64,000 nt of DNA. Source: Candidatus Gastranaerophilales bacterium. GTDB lineage: Bacteria; Cyanobacteriota; Vampirovibrionia; Gastranaerophilales; Gastranaerophilaceae. The notes beneath the pieces were generated by a model. The model saw nothing but the letters and a program-made list of their open reading frames with translations. It was not told the DNA's origin and ran no database searches. Made by a program: the position numbers and the translations under genes. Shown one piece after another: positions 571-56,064 of the stretch; the first letter of the stretch is position 1, and every line of letters starts with the position of its first letter. Where the stretch lies: contig CALURL010000006.1 in assembly GCA_944323155.1 (NCBI GenBank), forward strand, positions 21,159-85,158, in the 5' to 3' direction.

Positions 571-1257
571 TTAACTCCTAGTTTTTTCGCCATCCTTGGA
601 TACATCATTTGGAATATATTTAAATCCAGTAAGTTCTTGAATTGCAGCAATCCATTTTTCAACAACTTCATCAGGATTATCACTATATGGAATTGGTTTT
701 CCGATTTTAACTACAATTTTACCAGAAAAAGGTAAGTGTTTAGCCTCCTGAGTACCTGTAATTCCAATAGGCAAAACTGCGCATTTCGTAATTTTAGCAA
801 GTCCTGCAAAGCCTTTTGTAACGCCGGTAATAGTTCCAGGAACACCTCTTGTTCCTTGAGGGAAAATTCCGAACACCCATTTACTTTTTTTAATTTCAAG
901 AACAGTTTTAATGGTAGAAGGTCCTAAGCTTTCTCTATTAACAGCAAAAGTTCCCAGCCAATCAATCCACCACCTGATAAACGGAATATCAAACAACTCT
1001 TTTTTAGCCATAAAAGAGACCCTACGGGGTAAAATTGCAGCAATCATAGGTGGATCAAGGGTAGAAAGATGATTTGGACAAACAATATATTCATTATCCT
1101 TTGGAACATTTTCCAATCCTTCAACCTTAAGTCTATATACGACTTTCAAACGAATCATATAAAATATTTTACAAATAATAAGTTGGAATATTGTTCTCCA
1201 AATATTAAATTCAGAGGCATTTCTTTTTGTATAATTTTTGTCTTTATCCCAAAACAT
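571..1257 (-). CDS. 1-acyl-sn-glycerol-3-phosphate acyltransferase family protein (PlsC-like)
   Basis: 228-aa ORF with NHLSTLDPP (NHxxxxD) and FPQGTR acyltransferase motifs. Confidence 0.85.
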   Translation of the reverse strand: MFWDKDKNYTKRNASEFNIWRTIFQLIICKIFYMIRLKVVYRLKVEGLENVPKDNEYIVCPNHLSTLDPPMIAAILPRRVSFMAKKELFDIPFIRWWIDWLGTFAVNRESLGPSTIKTVLEIKKSKWVFGIFPQGTRGVPGTITGVTKGFAGLAKITKCAVLPIGITGTQEAKHLPFSGKIVVKIGKPIPYSDNPDEVVEKWIAAIQELTGFKYIPNDVSKDGEKTRS

Positions 1258-1390
1258 TTATAATAATCCTCTTAAAGAAATAGTATACTGTTTACTAAAA
1301 TTATACCTATAAGAAAGAAATATGACAAGTATTGAAATATAAAATAACAGCCTCTCTACCATCCTCTCATCCAAAACTAGTTGAATGGTG

Positions 1391-1442
1391 AAAGTTTGGT
1401 ATACCTGCAAAGCTGTAGGTTTTAGTTTTCCACCCCAACAAA
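1391..1442 (+). repeat. Degenerate REP-like hairpin unit (..CTGTAGGTTTTAGTTTTCCACCCCAACAA)
   Basis: Shares the AAAGTTT..GGT..CTGTAGGTT...CCCAACAA layout with units at 1536-1564, 1785-1837, 3895-3930, 53978-54033 and 56024-56064. Confidence 0.6.
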
Positions 1443-1483
1443 AAACATATCCTCTAGCCACATTGGGGAGAGAGTTAGAGAGA

Positions 1484-1564
1484 GGGGTGCTACGCACGTA
1501 GAAACTTGTGCCAATATTTGAGAGACTTAAAAAAATTGTAAGTTGGGGTTTCTACCCCAACAAG
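1484..1564 (+). repeat. Composite intergenic repeat, copy 1
   Basis: GGGGTGCTACGCACGTAG (CTACG/CGTAG palindrome), then ..CAATATTTGAGAGACTTAAA.., then hairpin TTGGGGTTTCTACCCCAACAAG. Aligns by eye with copies at 1681, 1741 and 3895 (inverted). Confidence 0.8.
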
Positions 1565-1680
1565 TAAACTTGTTCCCTCTCCTAGGGAGAGCGGATTGCG
1601 AGCAGAGGGCGAAACGGCGGCGCGCAGGCGACGGCGTTGCAGCCCCGTTTAACGCGAGCAACCAAGCAGGGATAGGGTGA
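1565..1680. other. GC-rich ~115-bp island embedded between repeat copies, function unknown
   Basis: CTCTCCTAGGGAGAG palindrome followed by GCGGATTGCGAGCAGAGGGCGAAACGGCGGCGCGCAGGCGACGGCGTTGCAGCCCCGTTTAACGCGAGC. Composition differs sharply from the surrounding AT-rich DNA. AAACGG..CCGTTT can pair. Confidence 0.4.
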
Positions 1681-1740
1681 GGGGTGCTACGCACGTAGGA
1701 ACCTGTATCAATATTCGAGAGACTTTAAAGTTTTTGGTCA
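1681..1740 (+). repeat. Composite intergenic repeat, copy 2 (lacks terminal hairpin)
   Basis: GGGGTGCTACGCACGTAGGAACCTGTATCAATATTCGAGAGACTTTAAAGTTTTTGGTCA, directly abutting copy 3. Confidence 0.8.
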
Positions 1741-1837
1741 GGGGTGCTACGCACGTAGGTAACTTTACCAATCTTCGAAAAACTTTAAAGTTTTTGGTGA
1801 AAATATAACTGTAGGTTGGGCATACCTGCCCAACAAG
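1741..1837 (+). repeat. Composite intergenic repeat, copy 3 (full length); left arm of inverted repeat around the giant pilin-like gene
   Basis: GGGGTGCTACGCACGTAGG...ACTTTAAAGTTTTTGGTGAAAATATAACTGTAGGTTGGGCATACCTGCCCAACAAG. The reverse complement of 3895-3991 aligns over the whole length at roughly 80 percent identity by eye. Confidence 0.85.
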
Positions 1838-1839
1838 AT

Positions 1840-1866
1840 AAAAAAAGAGCCCGATTTATCAGGCTC
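1840..1866 (-). terminator. Rho-independent terminator of the giant pilin-like gene
   Basis: Minus strand reads GAGCCTGATAAATCGGGCTC followed by TTTTTTT, 35 nt after the stop at 1902. Confidence 0.7.
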
Positions 1867-2639
1867 AGTAATGTTAACCAATTTAAATGTTTGTTTTGGA
1901 GTTACATTTTAATTGGTCGGATTGGTACAAGACGACAATCTGCATCTTGTACTTTACATTTGTCATCGATGGTCATGCCACCGCAGTATGCACTGGTTTG
2001 GATATAACCACTCTTACAAGCGGCTTCACGGAAACTTGTACTCTTTAATAACCATTTGACTACACGGGCTTGGCCGCTGTAATCGTCATACTGAAGACTT
2101 ACCTCCAAGTCACTCTTACTGTTGCCGCCGCGTTCACTACCGTCTTCCGGGAAACCTGGAACGACGGTACCAGATAAGGTTAAGTAGAACGGAAAAACAT
2201 CTTCATAAAGAATACTATCACCGGCGTTGCCGTTGACGTCAACATAAACAATATAACCGCCTTCGTCCATGGTGACACATTTACCGTCAGCCAAGAACAT
2301 TCCTGCTGGACAATAGCAGCCGCAATCAGGATAATCTGTCATATTACCGCCTGAGTCGACACATTGGCTTATGGCGTCTGCATTACAGGTTTTACGTCTA
2401 CATGTGTTTGCGCCGGTGCTTTCGTAGGGCTCTTCACATTTGCACAAGCAGCCTTCTAAGTATGTACTCATCGTGCCATGGCTGGAAACACAAGCATTGA
2501 CAACATCGGTCGCACAGGTTAACTCTACACACTTACTGCCGTCACTGGCATAACCTGCAGGACAGTTGGTACATTTACAATCTGGATATGAAGTCATAGT
2601 CCCGCCACTTGAAGTACAGGTACTTATCGCGCCTGAATC

Positions 2640-2960
2640 ACAAGTTTTCATTGTACAACTGCCATTAACTAAGTTATAAAGACTTGAACAGGAATTGCAA
2701 CGGCCGGTACATTTATCGCAATTAGTACAGCCTGCACTGCAGGATTTATTACAAGCTACACAAGAGGAGCCAGACAACTGGTAACCGCTCGAACAGCTAC
2801 TACAACGACCGGTACAACGGTCACAATTGCACAACCTGCACTACAGGAGGTATTGCATAGCTGGCAACTGCTGCCGACTAACTTATAACCACTAGAACAA
2901 GAACGGCACTGACCAGTACATTTATCACAGTCGCTGCAGCCACTGCCGCAACTGCCGTGC
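2640..2960 (-). repeat. Three tandem ~105-111-nt coding repeats (furin/VSP-like Cys-rich units)
   Basis: Peptide units GSCGSGCSDCDKCTGQCRSCSSGYKLVGSSCQLCNTSCSAGC / ANCDRCTGRCSSCSSGYQLSGSSCVACNKSCSAGC / TNCDKCTGRCNSCSSLYNLVNGSC, read across the frame breaks. Confidence 0.75.
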
Positions 2961-3775
2961 AGGGTTGGCATTCTTCACCTCTATGTGCAGCACCTAAACT
3001 AACTGCTTTGTAGCCACTCGGGCAAGAACATGAACAATATGGAAAACCGCCCAGAGGGTAGCCTCCTGGATTATTAAATGTGCCACCCGAATTTTGACAT
3101 CTATTTCGATTACCTACAGAACAGTTAACAAGAGCAAACGCAGGTGGCGTAAGATTATTCATAATACCTGTCAGAAAACCACTAAACCTTTGTAGAATAC
3201 TCGCGAACTTAAAGCCGGAGACATAACCTGTTTTCATATTGCCCTTCAACTGAGGTATTTCTACATAGTCATTTTTTACATTATAAAGCTTCATGCCGTT
3301 ACGAAAAACTATATCTGGTTGTACACCCGAAAAGTCTCCTGATGCAACAGCTTGAGATATGGCTGATTTGTTGTTGCCGCTACAATTTGAAGAGACTGTA
3401 TTCACAGACTCTTCGACGGCCTCACAGAAATCATTGCCATTGGTAGGCAAAGTTACTGAGATTGATACACAATCACAAACACTTTTATCGAATGCGTAAC
3501 CATCGGGACATTGTTTTTCTGTGCTACACGTGCCTTCTTTGTGCTCGGTGTCCTGTTTCTTAATTGAATATGAATTGCCGATTAAATTCGCAGAGACACT
3601 GTTTAAGGTGTCGTAGGCGGCAAAATATGTATAAGTGACAACTTTGTCTAACTTCGTGCGGGTGATTTTTATACAAACTCCGGCGACTACAGCTATAATC
3701 AACATGACGATGATTACCTCGGACAACGTAAATCCGAACGACCGCCGAAGTCCTTGGGAGACTAAGGAATTATCG

Positions 3776-3786
3776 CCCCCCCCCCC
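3776..3786 (-). repeat. G11 homopolymer (coding strand) at codon 10 of the giant pilin-like gene; in frame
   Basis: Counted 5+6 C on the plus strand. Coding strand is ATG+27 nt+G11 = ...LLS GGGG D. With G10 the frame would hit TAG (GCG ATA ATT CCT TAG). Confidence 0.9.
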
Positions 3787-3851
3787 GCTTAACAAGCGTA
3801 AGATTCTTTTCATCTTTTTTACCTCTCTATATTCTGTGTAACTCCAATTTT

Positions 3852-3880
3852 ATTATATTAGATTTTTTGAACTTATGCAA
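3852..3880 (-). promoter_or_regulatory. Sigma-70-type promoter TTGCAT-N17-TATAAT for the giant pilin-like gene
   Basis: Minus strand: TTGCAT (3880..3875), 17-nt spacer, TATAAT (3857..3852), ~39 nt upstream of ATG 3813, with AGAGAGG as RBS. Lies inside the inverted-repeat bracket. Confidence 0.55.
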
Positions 3881-3894
3881 CCCGTAAATTTTTA

Positions 3895-3991
3895 TTGTTG
3901 GGCAGGTATGCACAAACTACAGTTATATTCTTACCAAAACCTTTAAAGTCCCACGAATATTGACACAAGTCTCTACGTGCGTAGCACAGGG
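3895..3991 (-). repeat. Composite intergenic repeat, copy 4 (inverted); right arm of the bracket
   Basis: TTGTTGGGCAGGTATGCACAAACTACAGTTATATTCTTACCAAAACCTTTAAAGTCCCACGAATATTGACACAAGTCTCTACGTGCGTAGCACAGGG is the reverse complement of the unit at 1741-1837. Confidence 0.85.
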
Positions 3992-4079
3992 ATATGAGTT
4001 ACACAATATCAAATTTGATTGCATAATACAAGTTTTTTGTATAATATATTTATAAAAGATTATATTAAGGAGAGAACAG

Positions 4080-6353
4080 ATGCAAACAATGAAACATTCT
4101 GAAAATCAGCTGGAAAATGAATTATTTAAAAGTGTTTATGACAAAACTCCCGATTACATTAAAGAATTAAACCTTATGGATTTCTCCAACAAAGGAGAGT
4201 TCACATTTACATTAAAAAAAGAACATTTGTATCCGTATGACAAAAATTCAAATCCTGAAGGACTCAATTTAAAAGATTGGTTTGCAAATTACGCAAAAGA
4301 GGCAAAAGTTTCCACAGCAGGGATTAGAGGGCCTCAAAATATTTTATTTCCGCAAGATACAAGATTTCCGATAAATCTTGTAGGAATAGTTCTTGCGACT
4401 TTAGCAAAAGCTCTAGTGGCAAAAGAAAAATACCCGAATAAAGAAATTCTAAAAGTTGCAGGAAGAGAAGTTCGTTATAATTCTGCGCTGTTTCTTGATG
4501 CAATAGCAAGAATTCAAGCGGCAAACGGTATTAAAACTCTTGTACCTAAAGAAAGAAAAACTATTCCAATCTGGCTTGCATCATTTTTAGCGTTCAAACT
4601 TGATTTACTTGGCGGTGAATATATTACATCAAGTCACGGTATTTCTGTAAAAAATGCTACAAAAGATTTGAATTCTCAAGGCAGCCAGTATCTGCCAGAG
4701 GAATCTCTTGAATTTGTTAATAAAATTCAAGAAATTTTTGACATGACAGAAAAAAATGGTTCTTACGAGATTAAAATCGCAGCACAAGATAATCCGCTTA
4801 TAGATGAAAAAATTATGGATAAATTAAATGACGGCGTGGATTTATACGTTGAATACCTGAAATCCGGCGTTGCTCAAAAAATTAATCTTGATTTAATCAA
4901 GCAGATTAAAGACAAAATTGTTATTGAAAATGTCGGAGGCTCTGCATACAGAACGCTTAGCAGAGTGTTGAAAAAACTTGAAATTTCCGATAAATTTACA
5001 TGGTTTAACACAGAAGAAGATCCGTTTTTCCATTCAATAGGGAAGTATGACCATACACCGGCCGGAGAAAAAGCATTCTACGATTATTCTGTTGATGCGA
5101 CAGTTATTGCAAAGAAAAAAGACGGCGAAAAATTCTTCCCTGTTATTGAAACAATGAACTATCAAGAAAAATTAAAAAATATGCCTGTTGGAACAGCAGT
5201 TTTAATAACAGACCCTGACCATGACAGATTAACAATTACACAAACCGAATATGCATGTACAATTCCAGAACTCGAAAGAGCAGGAATTGATTATATTAAA
5301 ATCAATGATGACGTAATTCTAACAATTTTCACAGCTAATCAAGCTTTCCTAATGCTTATGGATTTCTGGGCTAAACAATTAAAGGCTCAAGGATTATGGG
5401 GAAATCATCCGCGATTTATGATTAAAACAACAGCCTCAGCTCTTTCTTGGGATGAATGGGCAAAAAAACAAGGGGTTAAAGTTGTTAATGTTCCTGTCGG
5501 CTTCAAAGAAATTGCTAACATCATGAAAAAAGTTGAGTTGAAATTGAAAAATTCCCCTGACAAGGAAGTTATCATTGAAGATGTATTCGGCAATGAAATT
5601 AACCTCGGCATAAATCCTAGATTACTTTTCGGTGGCGAAGAATCCGGCGGAATGATTATGGGTACAGAAGATCTCATTGAATCGCTTGCAGGAAGAAAAG
5701 CAATTGCGATGAGAGAAAAAAGCGCTACAGAAGCAATTATTGTTGCCTCTGCACTTATATCAAAGCTACAAAAAGAACAGGTTTCTTTATCTGAATATCT
5801 TCAATCAGTCTTTGATGAAAATGATATTATCGGACGCTTTGATACCCGTGTTGATATCGCTTACTACAACGAATCAGAGCCTGATATCAACAAACTTAAA
5901 CAAGCTAAAATTGAAGGGGAAAAGAAACGTACTAAGAACGATTTATTTTATCTTTCAATGGCAATGGGCGTAAAAGAAGGAATTATGACACTTGATGATG
6001 TTATAGAAATCCTTAATGACAGTTTCAAAAGTCTTATATTCGATCATCTTACAAACATAAAATTTGTCGGAGATGGAACATATTTGGAATTTACTGATAA
6101 ATACATTGAAATTCGTCCTTCAGGAACAGATGCCAAAACTAAAGCATATGGCGGCGGAAGCGACAAATCAATTATTGAGACATACGCCGGTGCTATGGGT
6201 AACTACTCCGGTGAAAGAACAGAGTTACATAAAAAATTTATCTCAGATGAATTTTACGAGCAAACTAAAGATAAAGCAATGGATTATTATCTGGAATTTG
6301 TCGATAAAGACGCAAATAATGAACCATTTACAATTCCAGAATACAAATTCTAA
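4080..6353 (+). CDS. Alpha-D-phosphohexomutase superfamily protein (divergent, long phosphoglucomutase/phosphomannomutase-like)
   Basis: 757 aa. TSSHG (active-site Ser loop, like TASHNP), GGEESGG (sugar-binding loop) and RPSGTDAKTK (RxSGTEP phosphate-binding loop). Confidence 0.6.
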   Translation: MQTMKHSENQLENELFKSVYDKTPDYIKELNLMDFSNKGEFTFTLKKEHLYPYDKNSNPEGLNLKDWFANYAKEAKVSTAGIRGPQNILFPQDTRFPINLVGIVLATLAKALVAKEKYPNKEILKVAGREVRYNSALFLDAIARIQAANGIKTLVPKERKTIPIWLASFLAFKLDLLGGEYITSSHGISVKNATKDLNSQGSQYLPEESLEFVNKIQEIFDMTEKNGSYEIKIAAQDNPLIDEKIMDKLNDGVDLYVEYLKSGVAQKINLDLIKQIKDKIVIENVGGSAYRTLSRVLKKLEISDKFTWFNTEEDPFFHSIGKYDHTPAGEKAFYDYSVDATVIAKKKDGEKFFPVIETMNYQEKLKNMPVGTAVLITDPDHDRLTITQTEYACTIPELERAGIDYIKINDDVILTIFTANQAFLMLMDFWAKQLKAQGLWGNHPRFMIKTTASALSWDEWAKKQGVKVVNVPVGFKEIANIMKKVELKLKNSPDKEVIIEDVFGNEINLGINPRLLFGGEESGGMIMGTEDLIESLAGRKAIAMREKSATEAIIVASALISKLQKEQVSLSEYLQSVFDENDIIGRFDTRVDIAYYNESEPDINKLKQAKIEGEKKRTKNDLFYLSMAMGVKEGIMTLDDVIEILNDSFKSLIFDHLTNIKFVGDGTYLEFTDKYIEIRPSGTDAKTKAYGGGSDKSIIETYAGAMGNYSGERTELHKKFISDEFYEQTKDKAMDYYLEFVDKDANNEPFTIPEYKF

Positions 6354-6361
6354 AATAAAAC

Positions 6362-6397
6362 AACCGCCTTGAAGAAACCTCAAGGCGGTTTAATTTT
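6362..6397. terminator. Bidirectional hairpin terminator between convergent genes
   Basis: AACCGCCTTGA-AGAAACC-TCAAGGCGGTT (11-bp stem), followed by TAATTTT and preceded by an A-rich run. Confidence 0.75.
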
Positions 6398-7159
6398 AAA
6401 ACCAAGGATAATCATCTTTTATCTGCCAGCCGTCATAGAATATCAAACCGGTACAGTAATTAGCATACTCTTTAGTAGGTTTTCCTGAGCAATAATCCAG
6501 AAGCTGAGATCTTTGTAACCCCAAACCTCCATATGGCTCTAATCCAGTTTTTTTGTATTGAAAAGTAAAGTATTTTGAGCCGCAACAAGCTTGTTGGGAA
6601 TTAACGTCCTTCTGGCAGCTATCAACATCTTTTGCGTAAGGATAAAAATACATATCAAAGACTGTTTTGGAATTGGTCGCAGCAAAACGAATTCCAAAAC
6701 CGCTTCCGTCAACAAGCTTAACCCAAACAGTATAATCATGCACCATTCTTTCAACAGAAAGAACATTCATATGCTTTCGTAAATAGGTATTGAACCACTC
6801 CTCAGTAGCTGATTCCTGAGTCAAATCCGGATCAGGCCAATTTTCAACTTCACCATATTCAACTTCTGCTAATTTTACAGCCTGTGAAAAAGTTGAATAG
6901 AATTTTTTTAACCTTGTCTCAGCAACACCTTTTTTGTGATTAGCAACCATAGAAGGAATAGTTAAGGCTGCGACAATGCCGATTATTCCTAAAGTAATTA
7001 AGACCTCTGCTAGAGTAAAGGCGGGTTTTATTTTAGATACCTTTGTTGAATTGCAAGAAATGCATTGTCTTTCAAAAAATTTTAAAGTTCCACAAACATT
7101 GGCGCAGGTATCTAGGCGCTTGCCCCCCCCCCAACTGCTCTTCTAAATCTATTTTTCAT
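6396..7159 (-). CDS. Prepilin-type N-terminal cleavage/methylation domain protein, phase-variable leader; currently out of frame at G10
   Basis: Track ORF 6396..6950 continues upstream in frame as KPA|FTLAEVLITLGIIGIVAALTIPS with no ATG/GTG/TTG. ATG at 7159 (AAGGAGG RBS) is 209 nt upstream (209 mod 3 = 2) and reads MKNRFRRAV+G10 then GCA AGC GCC TAG. One extra G fuses it in frame with no stops (checked codon by codon). C-terminus is GWQIKDDYPWF. Confidence 0.8.
7123..7132 (-). repeat. G10 homopolymer at codon 10 of pilin-like gene (off frame)
   Basis: 8+2 C counted on the plus strand. Confidence 0.9.
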
Positions 7160-7177
7160 AAAACCTCCTTTTATATA

Positions 7178-7206
7178 AATATATCAAATTTTCAAAAGAT
7201 TCGCAA
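7178..7206 (-). promoter_or_regulatory. Candidate promoter TTGCGA-N17-TATATT for pilin-like gene 6396..7159
   Basis: Minus strand: TTGCGA (7206..7201), 17-nt spacer, TATATT (7183..7178), just after the sulP stop. Confidence 0.4.
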
Positions 7207-7209
7207 GCA

Positions 7210-8835
7210 TTATATTCCGCTATTTTTAAACTTTTTCTTCAATAAATTTTTGGCATAATCTATAGCTTGAATTTCTGAGAAAAACACCTTTCCCTCACCG
7301 ATTTGCGAAGTAATATTGTGTTTTTGCAACTGATTGAATATTGTATTATTTTTTATAACTAAAAGTAATTTTATATGCTGCGATTTCAACCGAAATATTA
7401 TGTCTTCTAAAGCAAAAATTGCAGAAATATCAAGTAAGTCCTCACTATCGTAATTGAGTATAAGAAACTTTGTGCCAAGCATTTCATCGAATTTTGAAAT
7501 CAATTGTGTTGCAGAGCCAAAGAAAAATTGACCGTCAATATGCGCAATACGTATTTTGTGCCTAAAATCTCTTTCAACTTCTTTTTCCAGATTCGCAATA
7601 TCGCTGTCATATACTGTTTTATGAATAATTTTTGCTTTATCAGCCACACGTTTAGCATATAACAAAGCAGCCAGAGTAATTCCCGCCCCGACAGCAAATA
7701 TGAGGTTATAAAATACAGTCAGAAAGAAAACAGTAAATAATACATATAAATCGTCCTTTGGCGCAAATTTTATAACTTTTAAGAGTTTTGTATCAATTAT
7801 GTCGTAACCAATTTTAATTAATATTGCAGCAAGAACGGTAAACGGAATTTGGCCGACAAATCCAGAAAGCTTTGACAATAAAATTAATAGAATTGCAGGC
7901 GTAACAATAGCCGCGAATTTCGTTGTAGCACCTGCATTAATCGCTGCAACACTTCTCATTGTAGCAGCAGTACCCGGAAGCGAACCTGTTATGGCGCAAA
8001 AAAGATTCCCAAGCCCTTGAGATGCCAGCAAAACTTTTGGATTATGCCTTGTTTTTGTCAATGCATCTGAAACCAAACCAGTTAACATGCTTTCAGAAGA
8101 AAGAACTATTGCAATAGTCAAAGACATTGGCAAAAACTTAACCATTTGAGAAATATCTACAGATTTAAACATTAAAGTCGGGAAAGAAAATGTTACATTA
8201 CAAATTCTATCTACCGGAAGATTTAGTTTTATTGAAATCAAAGTTCCGACAACAAGCCCAATTATCTGCGATGGAATAACTTTATTTATACTTTTCGGCG
8301 TGAAAAATACTATAATTAAAGTCATAAGCCCAAGTATAAAAGATTCAGGCTGGATAGCATGCAAATTTGCAATAAAAGAATTTATGCTCAAAACAGAGGA
8401 TGAATAAGCCTTATACCCAATAAGCGGATTAAGCTGCATCAAAATTATTACGAATCCAACACCGTTCATAAAACCGGAAATAACAGGATACGGAACATAT
8501 TTAACCATATCAGGCAAATTAGTCAAAGACGCAGCCAGCTGCAAAATCGCAGCCATTAAAATAATTGTAATAGCAGTATTAATATCATACCCTATAGCAA
8601 TCATAATACTTGCAAGTACAATGGCAACCGGCCCTGTTGCACCGGATATTAAAGGCGTTTTAGGACCTGTTATACCTGCTATAAAAGATAGAATAATAGC
8701 ACCCCAAATTCCTGCGCTTGCACCGAATCCTGTTGCAACACCAAAAGCCAGAGCCTGTGGCAAAGTTACTACAGCAGCATTCAATCCGCCAAGAATATCG
8801 CCAGAAATAGCTTTCAACCGTGAACTAATATCCAT
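7210..8835 (-). CDS. SulP family inorganic anion transporter with C-terminal STAS domain
   Basis: 541 aa. Multi-pass membrane region with typical SulP N-terminus (DILGGLNAAVVTLPQALAFGVATG) and a C-terminal STAS-like region (HIDGQFFFGSA...). Confidence 0.85.
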   Translation of the reverse strand: MDISSRLKAISGDILGGLNAAVVTLPQALAFGVATGFGASAGIWGAIILSFIAGITGPKTPLISGATGPVAIVLASIMIAIGYDINTAITIILMAAILQLAASLTNLPDMVKYVPYPVISGFMNGVGFVIILMQLNPLIGYKAYSSSVLSINSFIANLHAIQPESFILGLMTLIIVFFTPKSINKVIPSQIIGLVVGTLISIKLNLPVDRICNVTFSFPTLMFKSVDISQMVKFLPMSLTIAIVLSSESMLTGLVSDALTKTRHNPKVLLASQGLGNLFCAITGSLPGTAATMRSVAAINAGATTKFAAIVTPAILLILLSKLSGFVGQIPFTVLAAILIKIGYDIIDTKLLKVIKFAPKDDLYVLFTVFFLTVFYNLIFAVGAGITLAALLYAKRVADKAKIIHKTVYDSDIANLEKEVERDFRHKIRIAHIDGQFFFGSATQLISKFDEMLGTKFLILNYDSEDLLDISAIFALEDIIFRLKSQHIKLLLVIKNNTIFNQLQKHNITSQIGEGKVFFSEIQAIDYAKNLLKKKFKNSGI

Positions 8836-8872: not shown

Positions 8873-9732
8873 CTAATACGGACTTTCATAATCATCAAAA
8901 GTATATTTTCTATTACAAAAGCTTTGATTACCCTTTACGCATTTTAAATAATCAAGATTTTCTTCCTGTAACACCCACGCAGAACAGCCACTGCCATTCC
9001 ACCAGCCATCTGCTCCAGTATCAGATGCAGGATTACACTGCTTGTAAGTAGAATGAGCTCCTGAACCGCCGCGGGGAATAATCCTGTTTCGTCCAACCTG
9101 AAATGTAAATGTGTCTACTCCCCAGCGATTTGGCCCTCTATTACCGTTTATATCGACATCAATATTAAAACAGTAATTATTACCTGAAAAAATGCCGCAC
9201 ATATTATCTTTTGCAGAACTAGCAGAGATTTGGTGGCCAAAACCGTAGACTATACCGTCTGCTGAAATTAAAGATGCACGGCTTCCGATTTCATCTACAT
9301 TATTATTAAGCAAATCTTTTCTCGCATCTTTTTGAAAACACTTGCCGCTATTGTTTTCATCAGGTGTACACACGCGCACATTTTTGATATATTTACTAAA
9401 CAAAATTGCGACATCATCCCAGGAATCATTTTCTAATGAAGGTAAAGACCAGTCTGATGGTTCGCCATAATCGTTCAGCATCATTGTATAGGCATTCGAT
9501 ATAGTTGAATATGCTTTTTTCAAACGAACAACTGTTTCTTTTTCCCTATGATTGGCAATTAAATTAGGCAATGTCAAAGCTGCGACAATGCCAATTATCC
9601 CTAAAGTAATTAAGACCTCTGCAAGGGTAAAGGCGGATTTTCTCGGTTTGCCAGACTCAATATAAGAGGTAAAATGGCCCTCTACGCGGCGCTTGCCCCC
9701 CCCCCGACAAGCTTTTTAAACAATCTTTTCAT
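8873..9732 (-). CDS. Prepilin-type protein, phase-variable leader; out of frame at G10; start overlaps murG stop
   Basis: ATG 9732 overlaps the murG TGA (ATGA). Reads MKRLFKKLV+G10 then GCA AGC GCC GCG TAG. G11 would give MKRLFKKLVGGGGKRRVEGHFTSYIESGKPRKSA|FTLAEVLITLGIIGIVAALTLPNLIANH..., joining track ORF 8873..9577 (155 nt offset, mod 3 = 2). Contains IDVDINGNRGPNRWGVDTFTF. Confidence 0.8.
9696..9705 (-). repeat. G10 homopolymer at codon 10 of pilin-like gene (off frame)
   Basis: 5+5 C counted on the plus strand. Confidence 0.9.
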
Positions 9733-19368: not shown

Positions 19369-20043
19369 TTGTCAAGATTAACAGAAAAACATAACCTGCC
19401 TGGCACTCTTGTTTGTGTAGAGGGAATTGACGGTTCAGGAAAGTCCACTCAAATAACACTTTTGCGAGATTGGCTTAAAGCTTCGGGAAAAGATGTTATA
19501 TTTACAGAATGGAATTCCTCAGACTTGATTAGCCAGACTACAAAACTTGCAAAAAAGAAAAATATGCTCTCGCCAAGAACATTTTCTCTATTACATGCAG
19601 TAGATTTTGCAGACAGATTTAAACAGGTTATCGGTCCTGCCTTAAAAGCAGGTTTCATCGTGCTTGCAGACAGATACGCTTATACTGCATTTGCAAGAGA
19701 CGTTGCTAGAGGAGTCGATCCCAATTGGGTTAGAAACGTTTATAGCTTTGCTTATCAACCAGATTTGGCGTTATATTTTGATATTGATCCAAAAACTTCA
19801 ATGGAAAGAATTTGTTCCAATCGCACCCCAAAATTCTATGAAGCCGGTATGGATTTAAAATTAAGCAATGATCCTTATGAAAGTTATATAATCTTTCAAA
19901 GCAGGGTAATTAAAGAATATCAAAAAATGGTCGATGAATTTGGTCTGATTAAACTTAACGCAAATGATTCAATCCACTCAAAACAGATAGAGATCAGACG
20001 TCTTTTAAAAGAAGTTCTAAGTGCAAAGGGTGAAAACATATAA
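19369..20043 (+). CDS. tmk: dTMP kinase family protein (paralog 1)
   Basis: P-loop VEGIDGSGKSTQ, ADRYAYT (DR[YF] motif). TTG start. Confidence 0.7.
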   Translation: MSRLTEKHNLPGTLVCVEGIDGSGKSTQITLLRDWLKASGKDVIFTEWNSSDLISQTTKLAKKKNMLSPRTFSLLHAVDFADRFKQVIGPALKAGFIVLADRYAYTAFARDVARGVDPNWVRNVYSFAYQPDLALYFDIDPKTSMERICSNRTPKFYEAGMDLKLSNDPYESYIIFQSRVIKEYQKMVDEFGLIKLNANDSIHSKQIEIRRLLKEVLSAKGENI

Positions 20044-21595: not shown

Positions 21596-22449
21596 TTAAT
21601 AATTCATTTCCCAGTTGTCATTTAGAATTTTTCCGAAACATCCATCGCCAAGAGGTGATTTTTGACAAAATGATTCAAATCTTTTTTCACGGTTTTCAGA
21701 GATACAATTAGAGGAATTGTCACTACATGTGTTAATTTCTTTATACTCATCAATTGAACCATCTTGATAAAATCTAGCGATAAACATATCTCTTCCACCG
21801 ATATTAGGGCCATTAACTCCGTTAACGTCAATAGTAATCAACCCGCCGTAAAAATTTTCGCTTGTTTCATATACAGCAATAGGAGATACACAAATAGAAG
21901 CGCCACTTGCTATAACAAAACATTTTACACCATCTGAAGTCTCAACATTCGTACTAAAAGTCTTAGTCCCATCAATAGATCTGTATTCATCTGCAAAACA
22001 AGGTCTATATTTGGTACCACAATCATTTACTATTTTAAAATACTGAGTCATAAAATCAGTTGTTTTATCCGAAGATGACAAACCTGCTTCTACTAAGTTT
22101 ATTGCGTTATGATCAGTTTGATATCTTACAAAAGCCTGACTAAATTCACTATAAACTTTATGTAATTGAGTTACATAAGTTTTTCTCTGATGATTTTGCA
22201 TTAAAGTTGGAACAGTCATGGCAGAAACTACACCAATAATTCCTAAAGTTACCAGAACTTCCGCTAGAGTAAATGCACATTTCTTTTTAAAAACTCTTGT
22301 TGGGCTGAAGATAGTATAGACCTTCTCCCCCAAATTGACGATTTGGTATAGATCTAAATTGTTTTTTGAGCAAACATTATCAGCTGCATCACCGTGTGCA
22401 ACTAAGCCTTTGCCCCCCCCCCAACTGTTTCTCTAAATAAATTTTGCAT
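21596..22449 (-). CDS. Prepilin-type protein, phase-variable leader; out of frame at G10
   Basis: ATG 22449 (AAGGAGG RBS, 12 nt after the radical-SAM stop) reads MQNLFRETV+G10 then GCA AAG GCT TAG. G11 would give a 59-aa leader ending ..KKKCA|FTLAEVLVTLGIIGVVSAMTVPTL, joining ORF 21596..22333 (116 nt offset, mod 3 = 2). Contains DVNGVNGPNIGGRDMF and the C-terminus GCFGKILNDNWEMNY. Confidence 0.8.
22413..22422 (-). repeat. G10 homopolymer at codon 10 of pilin-like gene (off frame)
   Basis: 8+2 C counted on the plus strand. Confidence 0.9.
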
Positions 22450-29333: not shown

Positions 29334-29390
29334 ATGTTATTCAAAAATAATTCACGCGTTTGCCCCCCCCCCGACAAGCTAATAAAATAA
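29334..29390 (+). other. Inverted copy of the pilin leader/homopolymer module; reads as an 18-codon mini-ORF on the plus strand
   Basis: AGGAGG 29321-29326, then ATG 29334 ... CGCGTTTG-C10-GACAAGCT. This is the reverse complement of AGCTTGTC-G10-CAAGCGC seen at 9690-9715. Plus-strand ORF is MLFKNNSRVCPPPDKLIK*. Flanked by direct repeats ATAAAATAAA(A)GG at 29311 and 29382. Confidence 0.6.
29363..29372 (+). repeat. C10 homopolymer (tract inverted relative to the adjacent pilin-like gene)
   Basis: 8+2 C counted on the plus strand. Confidence 0.9.
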
Positions 29391-29471: not shown

Positions 29472-30166
29472 AAAAATAAATTATATATTGAGGAAGATAA
29501 GATTATATCCAAACTTGCTTTCACATTAGCTGAAGTTTTAATTACGCTCGGAATTATAGGGATAGTTGCAGCGTTAACTTTACCGTCAGTTATTACTAAA
29601 TATCAAAAAAAGAGGCGGCCACAAGACTTGAACATGCTTATGCAGTTGTATATCAAGCCATAAAGATGTCAGAAGCAGTTAACGGGCCTATGGAAGACTG
29701 GCAAATCGAAGGTATAAATGATTTAAGCTACGCTGAAATTACTAAAAATTTTGTTGAAAGGTATATAACACCATACCTTACAACTGTCAATAAAAAACAA
29801 TTACCTTCATCTGGTATGCCTTATGACTATTACTATAGAGAAAACGGAAAGCTTGTTAATGCCGGCGGGCATACATATTATAGTATTGCGTTGAATAATG
29901 GAACTTATTTGCATTTTAATGCAGACTACGGACAATCCAATCCAATAAGCTTAAGAATTGATATAAACGGAGAAAAGAAACCTAATATTGCAGGAAGAGA
30001 TACATTTCATCTCTACTTTTTCCCGAAATTTGAATTTGAGGGTAGCAATTTAACAAGAACACAGCTGATAAATGGGTGTAAAAATGGAGTTAATTATGGT
30101 TCTGTACACTGCGGACGAATAATTCAAATGGATGGATGGCAGATAAAAGACGATTACCCTTGGTAG
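29472..30166 (+). pseudogene. Prepilin-type gene lacking a canonical start and frameshifted in an A7 run
   Basis: Open frame from 29472 reads KNKLYIEEDKIISKLA|FTLAEVLITLGIIGIVAALTLPSVITKYQKK with no ATG/GTG/TTG (GAGGAAG RBS-like, then in-frame ATT 29502). The frame is lost at A7 (29605-29611). An A8 would continue EAATRLEHAYAVVYQAIKMSEAVNG into track ORF 29666..30166. Contains LRIDINGEKKPNIAGRDTFHLYF and the C-terminus GWQIKDDYPW. Confidence 0.75.
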
Positions 30167-39413: not shown

Positions 39414-40123
39414 CTAATAATTCATTTCCCAGTTGTCATTTAATATCTTTCCAAAACAACCTGTCCAATAGCTAGGACTCAGGCAATAATCATTATATGC
39501 TTTTTCGCGCTCATCACGTGTTCCCGGGGCAGAAACAACATGATAATCATCAACCATTCCATTATTAAATAAAGATATGATAAAAACATCTCTACCTGCG
39601 ATATTAGGCCCTTTTGCGCCATTAATATCGACATCAAGCGTACATAGTCTGTCACCAGCACCTGTTGTATAGCCATAACCTATTGATACACCACTTGTCA
39701 GAGTTATAAAGGCTGGTCTTGATGAATAAATATTTGTTCCTGATAAGTTACGATATTCAGAATTAGGAGCAAAACACGGTACAGACTCATCCTTACAATC
39801 ACTTGCGATATTAAAATATGTCTTAAAAAAACTATCTAACGCAGCTTGAGAATTCAATCCTGCTTCCCGCATATTTACAGCATTATGATCAGTAATATAC
39901 CTTTGAGCAGCTTGTGACAATTCAGTATAAAATTTATGCAATTGCGTAACATACACTTTACGCTGATGACTTTGCATTAAAGTTGGAACGGTCATCGCAG
40001 AAACCACCCCAATAATACCCAAAGTAACCAGAACCTCTGCTAACGTAAAGCCTCTACGGCGATTGGAAAAGGAGACTAAGCCTGTGCCCCCCCCCCGTGA
40101 AGTGCTCTAATTAATTCTTTCAT
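39414..40123 (-). CDS. Prepilin-type protein, phase-variable leader; out of frame at G10
   Basis: ATG 40123 (AAGGAGAG RBS) reads MKELIRALH+G10 then GCA CAG GCT TAG. G11 would give MKELIRALHGGGGTGLVSFSNRRRG|FTLAEVLVTLGIIGVVSAMTVPTL, joining ORF 39414..40022 (101 nt offset, mod 3 = 2). Contains LDVDINGAKGPNIAGRDVF and the C-terminus GCFGKILNDNWEMNY. Confidence 0.82.
40087..40096 (-). repeat. G10 homopolymer at codon 10 of pilin-like gene (off frame)
   Basis: 4+6 C counted on the plus strand. Confidence 0.9.
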
Positions 40124-48531: not shown

Positions 48532-49467
48532 CTAATATTTAAGGGAATTTAAAATTTTTGTATTATGAAGATACTTATTATAATATCTTTTACGGCTTTT
48601 TTGAGAACCAACTTTTGAATATATGAAAAATTTTATATTATCAAACTTCAGTTTAAACATATATTTATAGATATTATATGAATTTTGCATCATAAAATCT
48701 TCATAGAAATCGGATAATCTAGCATATTTCCACCAAATATGCCTCATACTATGCATACAATCAAAACGATTCGGGTTTGCACCGACGAAATGAACAATTA
48801 TAGGATTTTCTATTTTGTCATTAATATTAAGCCAGTATTGTTCACAATAATTGTATTCTCGACCAAGATTTATTTTTCGTTCATCAATCATAATATTTAA
48901 AGTATCTTGATCAGCACATTTTATATTTTTAACATTTTTTCTAACGTAATCGACTGTTTTTTCATAAAAATGTTCTTCACGCCATAATTTTGCATTAATT
49001 AAAATAACGCCAGCATTAAAATATAGTAAGCTTTTCAGGCCTATGCCCCCCCCCCCGGGAAGCGCCACTACTGCAGCATAATTGCTGCCAAGGTCAATAT
49101 TAAACAAATTTTTAAGAGAGCTAAGAACCATTGTATCGGAATCTAAATATAGAATCTTATCAATATCATTACACAATTCTGCAATCTTTATTCTAAACCA
49201 TGTAGCCATTGTAACCCAATTTACAAGAGGAAATCCCTTAAATTCGTCGCGTTCTACTTTTACAAAACGGATATTACAATGTCTGATATTTTTTACAGAG
49301 TTTATTTTTTCTATACTAGCGTCAGACAAGCCCGAATGGATTATAACAAACTCAATTTCATCACTACTGTCAGCATTTTTCAAAACAGAAATCATTGATA
49401 CAGATGTTATACCGGCATAATTCTCATCAGGAGCATATGCAATAGTAATCTTTTCTTTTTTCAACAT
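48532..49467 (-). CDS. Glycosyltransferase family 8 protein carrying an internal in-frame G11 tract
   Basis: 311 aa. IAYAPDENYA.., YLDSDTMVL (DxD), FNAGVILINAKLWRE are GT8 blocks. The tract encodes LPGGGGIGL near codon 137-141. Confidence 0.85.
   Translation of the reverse strand: MLKKEKITIAYAPDENYAGITSVSMISVLKNADSSDEIEFVIIHSGLSDASIEKINSVKNIRHCNIRFVKVERDEFKGFPLVNWVTMATWFRIKIAELCNDIDKILYLDSDTMVLSSLKNLFNIDLGSNYAAVVALPGGGGIGLKSLLYFNAGVILINAKLWREEHFYEKTVDYVRKNVKNIKCADQDTLNIMIDERKINLGREYNYCEQYWLNINDKIENPIIVHFVGANPNRFDCMHSMRHIWWKYARLSDFYEDFMMQNSYNIYKYMFKLKFDNIKFFIYSKVGSQKSRKRYYNKYLHNTKILNSLKY
49046..49056 (-). repeat. G11 homopolymer inside the GT8 gene (in frame)
   Basis: 5+6 C counted on the plus strand, followed by GGG. 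Coding strand is CCC-G11-CAT. Confidence 0.9.
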
Positions 49468-53969: not shown

Positions 53970-53977
53970 GTAGGCTT

Positions 53978-54033
53978 AACTGTAGATTGGGTTTCCACCC
54001 CAACAAAATGTAGTTGTGCATCTCGCCCAACAA
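53978..54033 (+). repeat. Two tandem REP-like hairpin units
   Basis: AACTGTAGATTGGGTTTCCACCCCAACAA + AATGTAGTTGTGCATCTCGCCCAACAA. Same unit and orientation as 1808-1837, located at the 3' side of the 620-aa gene. Confidence 0.7.
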
Positions 54034-54039
54034 TAGAAC

Positions 54040-55902
54040 TTATGAAAATGCTTTGAATGAACGTTCAACGTTTTTGTCTATAACACTTTTAATTGAATCG
54101 TACTCAGTTTGAAGTGCACTGTGTTCTGTGTCTAATTTTTTCAAATCCTGATCGTATTTTTTGTCTTGTTGTTCAATTTCAGTTAAAGCGTTTTGATATT
54201 TAACTTCAGCTTTAGCAATAGCAGCGTCGTTTTGTTCAGAAGAAATATCAGCTACGCTGTTGTATTGAATAGATACCCAATCAACAGTACCGATATTAGG
54301 ATATTCATCAGAGCCGTTTTCTGAGAATGTAACCTGTTCAAGCGAGATAATACCGTGTTCAAGCGCAAATTGTAACCATTCGGCATTATTCATCAAATTG
54401 CTGTCAAGAACTTTGTAACTGTTGCTGTTATCTTGTTTTTCAGTTTCAGAAATACCGCCCATTCTGTACCACAAATTTTTGTACCATTCATATTTAGGGT
54501 CGTTTTCATCTGCTGTCAATTGTGGCGGAAGATTAGCAATAGCGTCAAGAAGAGTTTGTTGTTTCAACTCAACTTCTGCCTTCCAGGCTTTAACACTTTC
54601 TTGAAAAGCAACATACTGCTGTTCCCAGGAATCATGTGCTGGAACAAATTCTGTCATTGCTTCGCTAATAATTTGAGAATTTAAATTAGCTAATTTATTA
54701 TAAAATTCATTCCATTGAGCAACCAACTCAGCTTCAGATTTAGCAGAGCCACCTCCAGATATTGTATACCTGTTACTATCTAATTGTACTGTTGATGTTC
54801 CAACACAACCATTTTTATCAAGATAATTGATAACATCACAGTATAAATCTATTGCATATTGAATCATATCCTGTACACATGCATAATCTCCAGAATAGTC
54901 ATTTAGAGCTTTTCCTAAAGCTTTTGATGTTGAAGTATCAGTGAACTGGTAATTTGTCAAAGATACATATGAAGAAGATGTTCCACTTGCAGTTACCGTT
55001 ATACCGCTGGAACTTGTTATTGTGCCTGAGCCTAACCCATTTCCACCCCATAAAAGAGCAGACAAATTATGTTCCATATGTCCAATACCTTCTGCTGTGT
55101 CAGTTACAGAAGGATGGCATTGCTGCCCATTATAGTCAGTAACTAATTTTGAGAAATCCGGCAAAGTCGGCATAACCGGCTCATCCCCAAAATCCCAAGA
55201 TGGCGGGTTTGATACTGTATCAAGGTAGTCGCCTAATTGACCTTTGATGCTGTAGGTATGACCGTTCAAATACTGATCCATCCAACCAGTACTGCCGTTT
55301 GACATCTGAGATACCCAGTTATTATAACCGGTTGATGTTATATTACCGGAGCCTAAAGTTGGAAGACCGCTGTTATAATTGTTTAACCAAGTATTTGCTG
55401 TACCGTCAAATAAGCCATTTATAACATTATTACCAATATATGTTGCTGCATCATCATCAGTTGTGCAACCTGCCATTATCTGATCATAATTTTCACCAAA
55501 CAAAGTTGTCATTGCTGATGCGTATTCCGGATTATCTGTCAACGGAACATCGTAGCAAGCCAAAAATTCAGCTAATGTGTCGCTGTTTTCATAATTCTGT
55601 CTATCAATATCGCTTACCATTAACTGACCTGATGAGTTAATTAGACCGTATTGTGTTTTTAATTCACTATAATTCATCAATACAGAAGGAGTTAAACTTT
55701 GAGTAGTTTTTGCTCCTGTGCTGTCATAACTTACATAAGTAAGTTCAGATGAATTCAAAGCCTTCATATATTCAGAACTTGCTTCTGATGATTTATCAGC
55801 AAGACGAAGTTTTGAATTTGTAATCAATTGAGAGCGCATTTCATTATCGGTCAATCTGGCCGTAATGCTTAACAATCTCGCTTGTGCTGCTGACATTCCC
55901 AT
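54040..55902 (-). CDS. Hypothetical 620-aa protein: helical N- and C-terminal regions, S/T/G/N-rich core, no signal peptide
   Basis: Long clean ORF. N-terminus is MGMSAAQARLLSITARLTDNEMRSQLITNSKLRLADK. C-terminus is ..KAEVKYQNALTEIEQQDKKYDQDLKKLDTEHSALQTEYDSIKSVIDKN (heptad-like). No motif I can assign. Confidence 0.7.
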   Translation of the reverse strand: MGMSAAQARLLSITARLTDNEMRSQLITNSKLRLADKSSEASSEYMKALNSSELTYVSYDSTGAKTTQSLTPSVLMNYSELKTQYGLINSSGQLMVSDIDRQNYENSDTLAEFLACYDVPLTDNPEYASAMTTLFGENYDQIMAGCTTDDDAATYIGNNVINGLFDGTANTWLNNYNSGLPTLGSGNITSTGYNNWVSQMSNGSTGWMDQYLNGHTYSIKGQLGDYLDTVSNPPSWDFGDEPVMPTLPDFSKLVTDYNGQQCHPSVTDTAEGIGHMEHNLSALLWGGNGLGSGTITSSSGITVTASGTSSSYVSLTNYQFTDTSTSKALGKALNDYSGDYACVQDMIQYAIDLYCDVINYLDKNGCVGTSTVQLDSNRYTISGGGSAKSEAELVAQWNEFYNKLANLNSQIISEAMTEFVPAHDSWEQQYVAFQESVKAWKAEVELKQQTLLDAIANLPPQLTADENDPKYEWYKNLWYRMGGISETEKQDNSNSYKVLDSNLMNNAEWLQFALEHGIISLEQVTFSENGSDEYPNIGTVDWVSIQYNSVADISSEQNDAAIAKAEVKYQNALTEIEQQDKKYDQDLKKLDTEHSALQTEYDSIKSVIDKNVERSFKAFS

Positions 55903-56023
55903 TGTTGTAACAAGTTCCTTTCTTTAGATTAATTCCTTTGATACACATGTATCTACGACAGTTTTTGCCTGAAACTTTAAGAATAAAAAAGATTATGTTA
56001 CAAATGTTAACAATAAGTTTACC

Positions 56024-56064
56024 TTGTTGGGCAGGTATGCCCAACAACAGAACTGTCCCAACAC
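56024..56064. repeat. REP-like perfect hairpin plus half unit
   Basis: TTGTTGGGCA-GGTA-TGCCCAACAA (10-bp perfect stem, 56024-56047), then CAGAACTGTCCCAACAC. Confidence 0.75.

Follow-up and report, generated by a model that had tools for sequence, protein, structure and literature searches.

When two inverted repeats enclose a gene together with its promoter and terminator, do they delimit a unit that can invert or move, or have two copies of a dispersed repeat come to face each other around the gene? This question is raised by a locus in a 64,000-nucleotide stretch of Candidatus Gastranaerophilales bacterium (assembly GCA_944323155.1, contig CALURL010000006.1, positions 21,159 to 85,158 of the forward strand; the whole stretch is called the window here, and related loci are cited by L number). 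Between plsC and PGM, the window carries a Cys-rich type IV pilin-like gene on the reverse strand, which lies between the two arms of an inverted repeat. The original prediction, made from the letters of the window alone, described a complete promoter-gene-terminator unit and suggested a mobilisable or invertible cassette, or a recombination-prone surface-protein locus. The comparisons reported here favor, with a probability of about 0.7, a hypervariable contingency locus at which each arm is an independent copy of a modular dispersed repeat and the inverted geometry of the pair is incidental.

The arms are copies of a modular repeat

The inverted repeat of ~97 bp and ~80% identity that had been predicted is real, and its arms were refined to positions 1744-1842 and 3889-3987, each 99 nt long, with 80 of 99 positions complementary in register (81%) and a spacer of 2046 nt between them. 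Matches to the arms were obtained by BLAST and nhmmer with E-values of 1e-19 to 1e-31. The arms are 19% diverged, and the longest exact run common to both is 17 nt. Their predicted orientation was also borne out, the CCCAACAA ends of both arms pointing inward. Each arm has three parts, namely the core GGTGCTACGCACGTAG, a C-module of ~45 nt and an 8-bp hairpin headed by GTAG. The core is 16 nt long and contains the palindrome GCTACG-CA-CGTAGC (6-2-6) when the next base is C, and a further palindrome, AAAACTTTAAAGTTTT, is contained in the C-module. As single-stranded DNA the left arm folds better than shuffled sequence (Table 1), and the right arm folds poorly (z = +0.5) because its hairpin has decayed. 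The arm termini, GGGGTGCTACG... and ...GCCCAACAAG, are dissimilar, and terminal inverted repeats are lacking from both arms; the outer flanks of the arms share no duplication of 4 nt or more, that is, no target-site duplication. Full-length arms were detected with the nhmmer arm profile only in the species group of the window.

The two arms are not a private pair set around the gene, as the earlier description had implied, since an additional full copy (1484-1569) and a half-copy (1682-1740) are present beside them, and the core occurs at this locus in four copies. The modules at 1403-1485 recur in L006, L007, L013 and L134 in different combinations, and the E-type module at 1575-1683 is found in inverted orientation, across from a remnant of the gene, in L007. 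The C, H, E and P modules are arranged in varied orders in the window, L005, L006, L007 and L134, the tandem number of the C-module ranging from 1 to 3 (1 or 2 here, 2 in L006 and 3 in L122). From copy to copy, the stems of the hairpins show compensatory changes (GGGC/GCCC, GGGG/CCCC and GAGG/CCTC). An Rfam scan of positions 1200-4200 at permissive thresholds returned only a sub-threshold match to a streptococcal small RNA over the terminator; there is no known RNA family at 1200-4200. No description of these repeats was found in the searchable literature.

The arms and the gene vary independently between strains

Exact matches of the flanking proteins and a scan of reference genomes put the window among human-gut assemblies of Candidatus Gastranaerophilales (Melainabacteria). 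Strains were compared at the plsC-PGM interval, where the flanking plsC and PGM proteins are 100% identical to those of the window. The gap between the two genes measures 2822 bp in the window, 2811-2821 bp in L005 and L009, 1559 bp in L001/L007, and 790 bp in L006 and L008, and across strains the gene is intact, frameshifted, 5′-deleted or absent. In L007 a deletion has removed the promoter and two-thirds of the gene from its 5′ side, and ~700 bp remain at the 3′ side. L006 and L008 have no gene; short hairpin modules of other kinds occupy their gap, which is thus no clean empty site. Alleles of the gene are 82-95% identical, compared with 96-99% for the flanks.

The arms themselves come and go. 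L010, L013 and L014 have the gene and lack precisely the left arm; L013 and L014 read ...GGTGAGGG·TAC·AAAAAAAGAGCCCG..., and at that point L011, L007 and the window contain a whole unit of ~97 nt. Conversely, L139 lacks the part corresponding to window positions 3858-3992, including the right arm, and has the gene at this locus in unchanged orientation. The 60-nt tandem copy is missing from L007, L011 and L139, and the bracket of L005 is a variant with different spacing. A mobilisable cassette bounded by the arms does not agree with the absence of the left arm from three of these strains, the absence of the right arm from another and the lack of target-site duplications. The suggestion of a recombination-prone surface-protein locus fared better: the gap and the state of the gene vary, the alleles are more diverged than their flanks, the center of the gene is hypervariable, and paralogues exist. 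The original prediction had set three findings against itself, a fixed orientation, arms at unrelated sites and uniform occupancy; the first two were observed, and the third was not, as occupancy differs between strains.

Orientation of the segment and the search for recombination functions

All of the independent assemblies that cover either junction (13/13) have the terminator side toward plsC and the start side toward PGM, and the signature of an inverted junction was seen in none of the 13. The segment shares inverted-repeat flanks with invertible switches; it was not found in both orientations, and its promoter is not separated from its gene. Since the segment contains the promoter and terminator along with the gene, flipping would leave this gene unchanged. 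The word invertible is not supported for a segment with a single orientation, an internal promoter, arms that are 19% diverged and no invertase found. The pattern of a composite or MITE (miniature inverted-repeat transposable element) transposon is not seen either, in that the bracketed unit does not recur: other loci have the downstream arm only (L134-L139) or no arm (L140-L142). A scan of JGI metagenomes for the promoter/arm junction in its flipped or empty form gave 0 matches; the lineage sits in ENA gut assemblies.

No serine recombinase, tyrosine recombinase or Y1 transposase was detected in the window by a lead-level tblastn search of limited sensitivity, and to that extent the earlier statement that the window contains no recombinase holds. 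With Hin and XerD queries, XerD-like genes were found only in L017 and L022 (2 of ~120 loci, about chance density). In the 1.17 Mb of DNA covered, no transposase of the kind associated with repetitive extragenic palindromic (REP) sequences (RAYT) was found by tblastn, and no recombinase or transposase was enriched near core copies. A candidate RAYT/IS200 transposase at 19471-19752 was rejected, the sole tblastn match being a thymidylate-kinase-like P-loop protein.

Several other systems were considered and set aside. Shufflon-like switching does not apply to L016, where pheS-like and kdsA-like genes separate the inverted cores and each core belongs to a paralogue of its own. For an integron attC site, GTTGGGC and GCCCAAC fit GTTRRRY and RYYYAAC, but they are 6 nt apart in one hairpin and not at the ends, and no integrase was seen. 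Three more were a DNA uptake sequence (the copy number is far too low), a XerCD/dif-like site (only GGTGC matches) and G-quadruplex-driven pilin variation as in Neisseria, for which G-runs are available in the E modules.

The pilin-like gene is a pseudogene with a length-variable poly-G tract

The promoter-gene-terminator unit is not complete, as had been thought, because the two 1-nt deletions listed in Table 1 split the gene over three frames (2878-3813, 2756-2971 and 1902-2834). Both deletions are common to the window, L009 and L003, and L002, L010 and L011 are intact at those points; as the window, L009 and L003 are independent assemblies that share both deletions, the gene is a real pseudogene and not the product of sequencing error. 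With the two bases restored, it encodes 637 amino acids with 59 cysteines. The protein has a long leader that contains a poly-G tract, followed by the class III signal SFG·FTLSEVIIVMLIIAVVAGV, which consists of the G·FTL.E motif and a hydrophobic helix, and the Pfam family N_methyl (PF07963) is matched with 24.6-25.2 bits (cut-off 21.2). CxxC-rich repeats follow the N-terminus, and the remainder of the protein belongs to no Pfam family. A sequence search of the PDB with the repaired protein gave only a weak match to the (geo)pilin N-terminal domain, and an exact look-up of the 311-amino-acid N-terminal open reading frame (ORF) found no record. Among 5.8 billion proteins only ~20 homologues were found, 8 of them full length with 61-93% identity. 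The ends of this protein family are conserved (74-86% identity), whereas insertions and deletions abound in its hypervariable center (26-58% identity over residues ~200-400).

The coding region is richer in GC than its surroundings (0.43-0.52 vs 0.344±0.025), as had been noted from the sequence. GC at third codon positions (GC3) is 0.387, compared with 0.243±0.028 in the 44 other genes of the window (maximum 0.308; z = 5.1), and the raised GC is therefore not simply a matter of amino-acid composition.

The claim of a near-consensus promoter stands for the site and for its −10 element and falls for its −35 element. TTGCAT-N17-TATAAT, read from 3880 to 3852 on the reverse strand, is the sole such site in the window, but TTGCAT agrees with TTGACA at only 3/6 positions, which is why a consensus scan did not list it. 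The predicted terminator was confirmed where it was expected, read from 1866 to 1847, with a stem and then a T-run.

The poly-G tract is 11 nt long in the window and L009, 10 nt long in L003, L004 and L137, and interrupted in L002 and L005. Its length thus differs between close relatives and sets the reading frame, as in homopolymer contingency genes compared across strains. In a neighboring pilin-like gene, the G11 form (L005) gives a full protein with N_methyl and DUF6613, and the G10 form gives a truncated call. This pattern bears the mark of homopolymer slippage as described in Neisseria, Haemophilus and Campylobacter, and changes in tract length by slippage would be expected to cause phase variation.

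Similar tracts are found elsewhere in the window. G10 tracts lie ~8 codons past the ATG of four other pilin-like genes (7123-7132, 9696-9705, 22413-22422 and 40087-40096), and a further G10 tract is present in a fragment at 29363-29372. The four genes share the mature N-terminus FTLAEVL(I/V)TLGIIG, and two of them are DUF6613 genes. All four are out of frame, with a TAG stop soon after the tract, and G11 would restore the frame; the set looks like a bank of phase-variable pilin-like genes that would be mostly OFF in this assembly. A C11/G11 tract at 49046-49056 lies within an ORF (48532-49467, reverse strand) for a GT8 family glycosyltransferase (Pfam E = 8.5e-37), a layout classic for phase-variable genes of surface glycans. 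The 5′ ends of paralogous pilin-like genes have 195 nt in common at 77% identity (22079-22273 vs 39855-40049), and their 3′ ends a 34-nt block at 88% identity (6401-6434 vs 30131-30164) that encodes DGWQIKDDYPW, and these blocks are candidate substrates for exchange between paralogues.

Table 1. Features of the plsC-PGM interval, with coordinates in the window.
Feature	Position	Strand	Details
Start of the array downstream of plsC	1403..1485	+	Degenerate H-like hairpin CTGTAGGTTTTAGTTTTCCACCCCAACAA, then E-type CCTC/GGGGAGAG module ending in GGGG
Extra full repeat copy, direct	1484..1569	+	Core GGTGCTACGCACGTAG, C-module, hairpin TTGGGGTTTCTACCCCAA; nhmmer E = 6.9e-21; fold z = −2.4
GC-rich E-type module	1575..1683	+	CCCTCTCC-TAG-GGAGAG hairpin ... 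GGGATAGGGTGAGGGG; fold z = −2.5; no Rfam match
60-nt tandem half-copy, direct	1682..1740	+	Core and C-module, no hairpin end; E = 2.6e-15
Left arm, insertion/deletion polymorphism	1741..1842	+	Core, palindrome AAAACTTTAAAGTTTT, hairpin GTTGGGCA/TGCCCAAC; profile E = 3.4e-31; fold z = −4.1
Intrinsic terminator	1847..1866	-	8-bp stem (5 G-C), loop of 4, T-run; 36 nt past TAA; kept in all paralogues
Cys-rich type IV pilin-like gene, pseudogene	1902..3813	-	1-nt deletions near 2957 and 2830; hypervariable center ~2613-3213
Poly-G tract, codons 10-13 of the leader	3776..3786	-	G11 in frame; G10 leads to a TAG stop 5 codons on
Promoter-like site TTGCAT-N17-TATAAT	3852..3880	-	Followed by ribosome-binding site GAGAGG and ATG at 3813; common to the L137 paralogue
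Right arm	3889..3987	-	Order core, hairpin, promoter, gene; hairpin degraded; profile E = 9.2e-28

A stretch of ~105 nt within the module at 1575-1683 (CGGATTGCGAGCAGAGGGCGAAACGGCGGCGCGCAGGCGACGGCGTTGCAG...) has ~65% GC in a genome of 34% GC, is nested within the CCCTCTCC/GGAGAG hairpin module and is also present in L007, L013 and L139. Elsewhere in the window, GTAG-headed hairpin modules at 53975-54035 and 56020-56047 (TTGGGTTTCCACCCCAA and TTGGGCAGGTATGCCCAA) flank a gene on the reverse strand (54040-55902), the 620-amino-acid product of which belongs to no Pfam family. Many of the retrieved contigs end inside the plsC-PGM locus, and assemblies tend to break at these repeats.

The core is conserved across the Gastranaerophilales

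More than 119 core-bearing stretches of reference genomes were among the matches listed, almost all of them from Gastranaerophilales or Melainabacteria, including the closed genome MEL.A1. Among 134 exact core copies examined, 43% are associated with pilin-like genes (45 within leaders and 13 on the same strand at 120-600 nt upstream), compared with ~2% expected from the density of these genes. A further 62 of the 134 copies lie between ORFs that have no pilin gene nearby, and ~14 lie inside other ORFs.

The leaders have the arrangement M..(G/A)FTLAE·GATHV-x10-(A/G)FTLAE·VLITLG..., in which an in-frame unit of 60 nt restores the cleavage motif. The first 16 nt of this unit are the core of the arms, and its length is invariant in 41/41 leaders (across L015-L133). 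Examples are L018 (170), L044 (630, reverse strand) and L070 (84), and L122 has three units in tandem (2394-2513); the first FTLAE of the unit is often decayed. In a protein search the double motif was present in 62 of the 120 top matches, with a spacing of 15 residues in 56/62. Near-core copies number 47, compared with ~6 expected by chance, and carry 88 non-synonymous vs 6 synonymous changes in the GATHV frame; the core is therefore conserved as DNA and not as peptide. The substitutions in the near-core copies spare the palindromic center.

Arm positions 8-64 (the C-module) match the leader of a neighboring pilin-like gene in the window at 7122-7066, just past its G10 tract (E = 4.9e-6). When the core was removed, a profile of the leader units of other species matched no arm and found only genuine FTLAE-coding sites; shared ancestry with these leader units is accordingly claimed for the core only, and homology of the arms to the 60-nt unit of other species beyond the core was rejected as unsupported. 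Within the species, modules vary in presence between orthologous leaders. In L006 (3320-3700), a ~370-nt mosaic made up of a hairpin module in inverted orientation, a P/E module and a tandem pair of C-modules is found in the leader orthologous to window positions 9731-9620 (reverse strand), with the ATG-poly-G start on one side and KPA·FTLAEV on the other. This mosaic is free of stops and, at G11, in frame with the poly-G start as well as with the mature pilin.

The core is also found in other contexts. In L033 (3162), L035 (4912) and L052 (2249, reverse strand), from three species, the core and C-module are in frame inside a GH3 (NagZ-like) gene, in which the insert adds ~12-17 residues between the conserved SDDM and AG.NM motifs. 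L065, from another species, contains inverted arrays of a different core-bearing subfamily (3437-3636, 4912-5108 and 6966-7315), which flank a TPR/glycosyltransferase-like gene (5168-6640), a geometry like that of the window around an unrelated gene. A core variant, (A/G)GTACTACGTACGTAG, occurs in L049, L096, L104, L105, L106, L109, L115 and L136 (7086-7101), and its center is the perfect 12-nt palindrome CTACGTACGTAG; the recurrence of this variant suggests that there may be two sub-families and a dimeric binding partner. Viral contigs gave 6 core matches, 5 of them in contigs of 58-66% GC, which is the chance level, and hence there is no link to phages.

Paralogues at other loci

Homologues of the gene were found at no fewer than five other loci in related genomes. 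One lies beside a rotamase gene (L134/L135) and another in the interval between groES and an H+-pyrophosphatase (PPase) gene (L137/L138); the L136 locus holds two copies, the second of which is also on L140, and L141/L142, from a genome further removed, show one more locus. The samples that yielded L137 and L138 also yielded the gene-free L006 and L008. In L134-L139 the 3′ end of the gene, the terminator and the downstream arm align to the window as one unbroken stretch, with 83-88% identity. These loci have no upstream core and at most a fragment of a hairpin module in its place, and L140, L141 and L142 lack both arms. As no other locus reproduces it, the symmetric bracket is a peculiarity of the lineage of the window.

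Interpretation of the locus

The reading that we favor starts from the observations made above on the repeat family, the separate presence and absence of each arm, the fixed orientation, the pseudogene, the tract polymorphism and the paralogues at several loci. The arms would have been independently acquired or independently retained as members of a repeat family specific to Candidatus Gastranaerophilales, the modules of which would accumulate, duplicate in tandem and disappear in the DNA that flanks pilin-like genes and, in related strains, also within cleavable leaders. The Cys-rich pilin-like gene, accessory and apparently foreign in composition, would be gained, replaced, truncated and lost between strains. 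Slippage in the poly-G tract of the leader would switch translation; in the lineage of the window the tract is predicted to be ON (G11), with the gene dead from its two frameshifts. Turnover of the gene probably proceeds by recombination, which could involve two repeat modules or, following DNA uptake, the conserved flanks.

Several points weigh against this reading. The assemblies are consensus sequences, in which a low-frequency inversion within a population would escape detection, and the census of copies for the species of the window is partial. The empty and filled sites are not clean, as the arm replaces TAC and has no target-site duplication. At four loci the downstream arm directly adjoins the 3′ end of the gene, at the identities given above, and thus it is not a random later insertion but has travelled with one sub-lineage of the gene; this co-travel appears to leave room for a role in gene movement.

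Such a role is the substance of an alternative in which the promoter, gene, terminator and downstream arm move together as a cassette, the core-bearing arm serving as the recombination site and the upstream arm being a leftover second site, comparable to an attC-bearing integron cassette, pdif module or MITE-flanked unit. We consider it unlikely, and of the rivals it comes first in rank. Homologues with the same promoter, leader, terminator and downstream arm at no fewer than five loci speak for it, as do the origin of the gene-free L006 and L008 from samples that have the gene at groES-PPase, the GC3 of the gene (a 5-sigma outlier), the DNA-level conservation of the 6-2-6 palindromic core and, at L134, the end of homology exactly at the outer end of the core. 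Movement as a cassette is harder to reconcile with an upstream boundary that differs at each locus and lacks target-site duplications, with two family members that have no arm at all, with the gene in L010, L013 and L014 having no adjacent arm, and with the failure to detect a recombinase or transposase in the window or an enrichment of one near cores in 1.17 Mb; moreover, most core copies are not beside this gene family. A related and tentative proposal, to which we assign a low probability, is that the core and C-module constitute a mobile or recombinogenic DNA element of the Gastranaerophilales that homes to the FTLAE-coding N-terminus of pilin-like paralogues and acts as a site of gene swapping. 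The rigid 60-nt in-frame insertion would restore the prepilin cleavage site, so that the element would be removed with the leader at no cost; the flanks of pilin-like genes that undergo horizontal exchange would bear it too, and swaps between loci could take place through it. The proposal is compatible with the data because the core is conserved at the DNA level, the unit length is the same in 41/41 leaders, modules differ within the species and the arm has co-travelled to four loci.

It is less likely still that the arms are relics of genes, that is, decayed fragments of pilin-like 5′ leaders left by repeated gene replacement at a hotspot. The match of arm positions 8-64 to a neighboring leader, the short G-run that precedes the core as it does in leaders, the location of 43% of the core copies in pilin-like genes or within 600 nt upstream of them on the same strand, and the right arm, which has exactly this geometry, all point in this direction. 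On the other hand, the left arm faces the 3′ end of the gene, the core-removed leader profile misses the arms, 62/134 core copies are intergenic with no pilin gene nearby, some copies form tandem arrays or lie in the GH3-like gene, and the presence or absence of the whole unit at one exact point resembles the gain or loss of an element and not decay. Very improbable is an invertible segment, in which the inverted cores would be crossover sites for an invertase encoded elsewhere that flips 2.2 kb. The inverted arms would fit, and the palindromic core with its asymmetric central CA resembles the crossover sites of serine invertases in form; but all 13 assemblies have one orientation, inversion would be no switch with the promoter and whole gene inside, the arms have not been homogenized (81%), no invertase was detected (lead-level tblastn), one arm or the other is absent from four strains (the right from L139, the left from L010, L013 and L014), and in L016 the inverted cores lie in two separate paralogues with essential genes between them.

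Comparison with known repeat systems

In behavior, the repeat family comes closest to the BOX elements of Streptococcus pneumoniae, which are modular intergenic repeats of the form boxA-boxB(n)-boxC. Both are mosaics of short hairpin modules of ~100 nt with a variable tandem internal module and no transposase of their own, mostly intergenic and located beside surface or competence genes. There is no sequence relationship between them, however, and the family described here apparently has a much lower copy number, also occurs in frame in coding leaders and has a 16-nt core kept across a whole order. Correia elements, MITEs of Neisseria, are likewise ~100-150 nt long, cluster at contingency and pilin loci, vary in presence between strains and can pair around genes, but they have 26-bp terminal inverted repeats, a TA duplication and hundreds of copies, and the arms have neither the terminal repeats nor the duplication. 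Rickettsia palindromic elements resemble the family in being stop-free palindromic modules in frame in coding genes, for which the counterparts here are the ~370-nt mosaic of L006, the 60-nt unit in 41 leaders and the GH3-like insert of L033, L035 and L052; the coding insertions here differ in being mostly in a cleaved leader and in restoring its cleavage motif, and the copies in the window are intergenic.

REP sequences and bacterial interspersed mosaic elements (BIMEs) share with the family a GTAG (or GTAA) head with a GC-rich hairpin, compensatory stem changes and extragenic clusters in both orientations, and a REP-type head with an imperfect palindrome is present here as TGTAG-GTTGGGCATACCTGCCCAAC and TGTAA-GTTGGGGTTTCTACCCCAAC. 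The strict module of GTAG plus hairpin nevertheless occurs in only 2 copies in 64 kb (with ~7 loose copies, at three intergenic regions), its density is 0.04 per kb in 836 kb of related genomes, where the stems are mixed, and no RAYT was found in 1.17 Mb; a classical high-copy REP family was rejected on this low census. Invertons (fimS, hin and Bacteroides promoters) and MITE-flanked units (IMUs) also have a segment bracketed by inverted repeats, but here there is one orientation, the promoter and gene are both inside, no adjacent recombinase was found, there is no duplication and the bracket is not repeated. By the features that define them, invertons, composite or MITE transposons and REP-RAYT systems thus do not include this family. 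As for the gene, the contingency genes of Neisseria, Haemophilus and Campylobacter likewise carry a strain-variable 5′ tract of 10-11 G that sets the frame; the differences are that the host here is an uncultured non-photosynthetic relative of cyanobacteria and that the tract lies in an unusually long prepilin leader. We rate the arms as a known sort of small dispersed repeat, and the 60-nt leader unit and the order-wide palindromic core as more novel.

Significance

The feature as first proposed is ordinary, consisting of two copies of a dispersed repeat that face each other around a gene. Of moderate interest is a gut relative of the cyanobacteria in which pilin-like surface genes appear to be under poly-G phase variation and in which one Cys-rich family is exchanged, broken and lost between otherwise near-identical strains. 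If the core is indeed a site of recombination or regulation, it would explain surface variation of this organism in the gut and would provide markers for metagenomic strain typing. If it belongs to a homing element, it would represent a previously undescribed system of surface variation in a lineage of the human gut.

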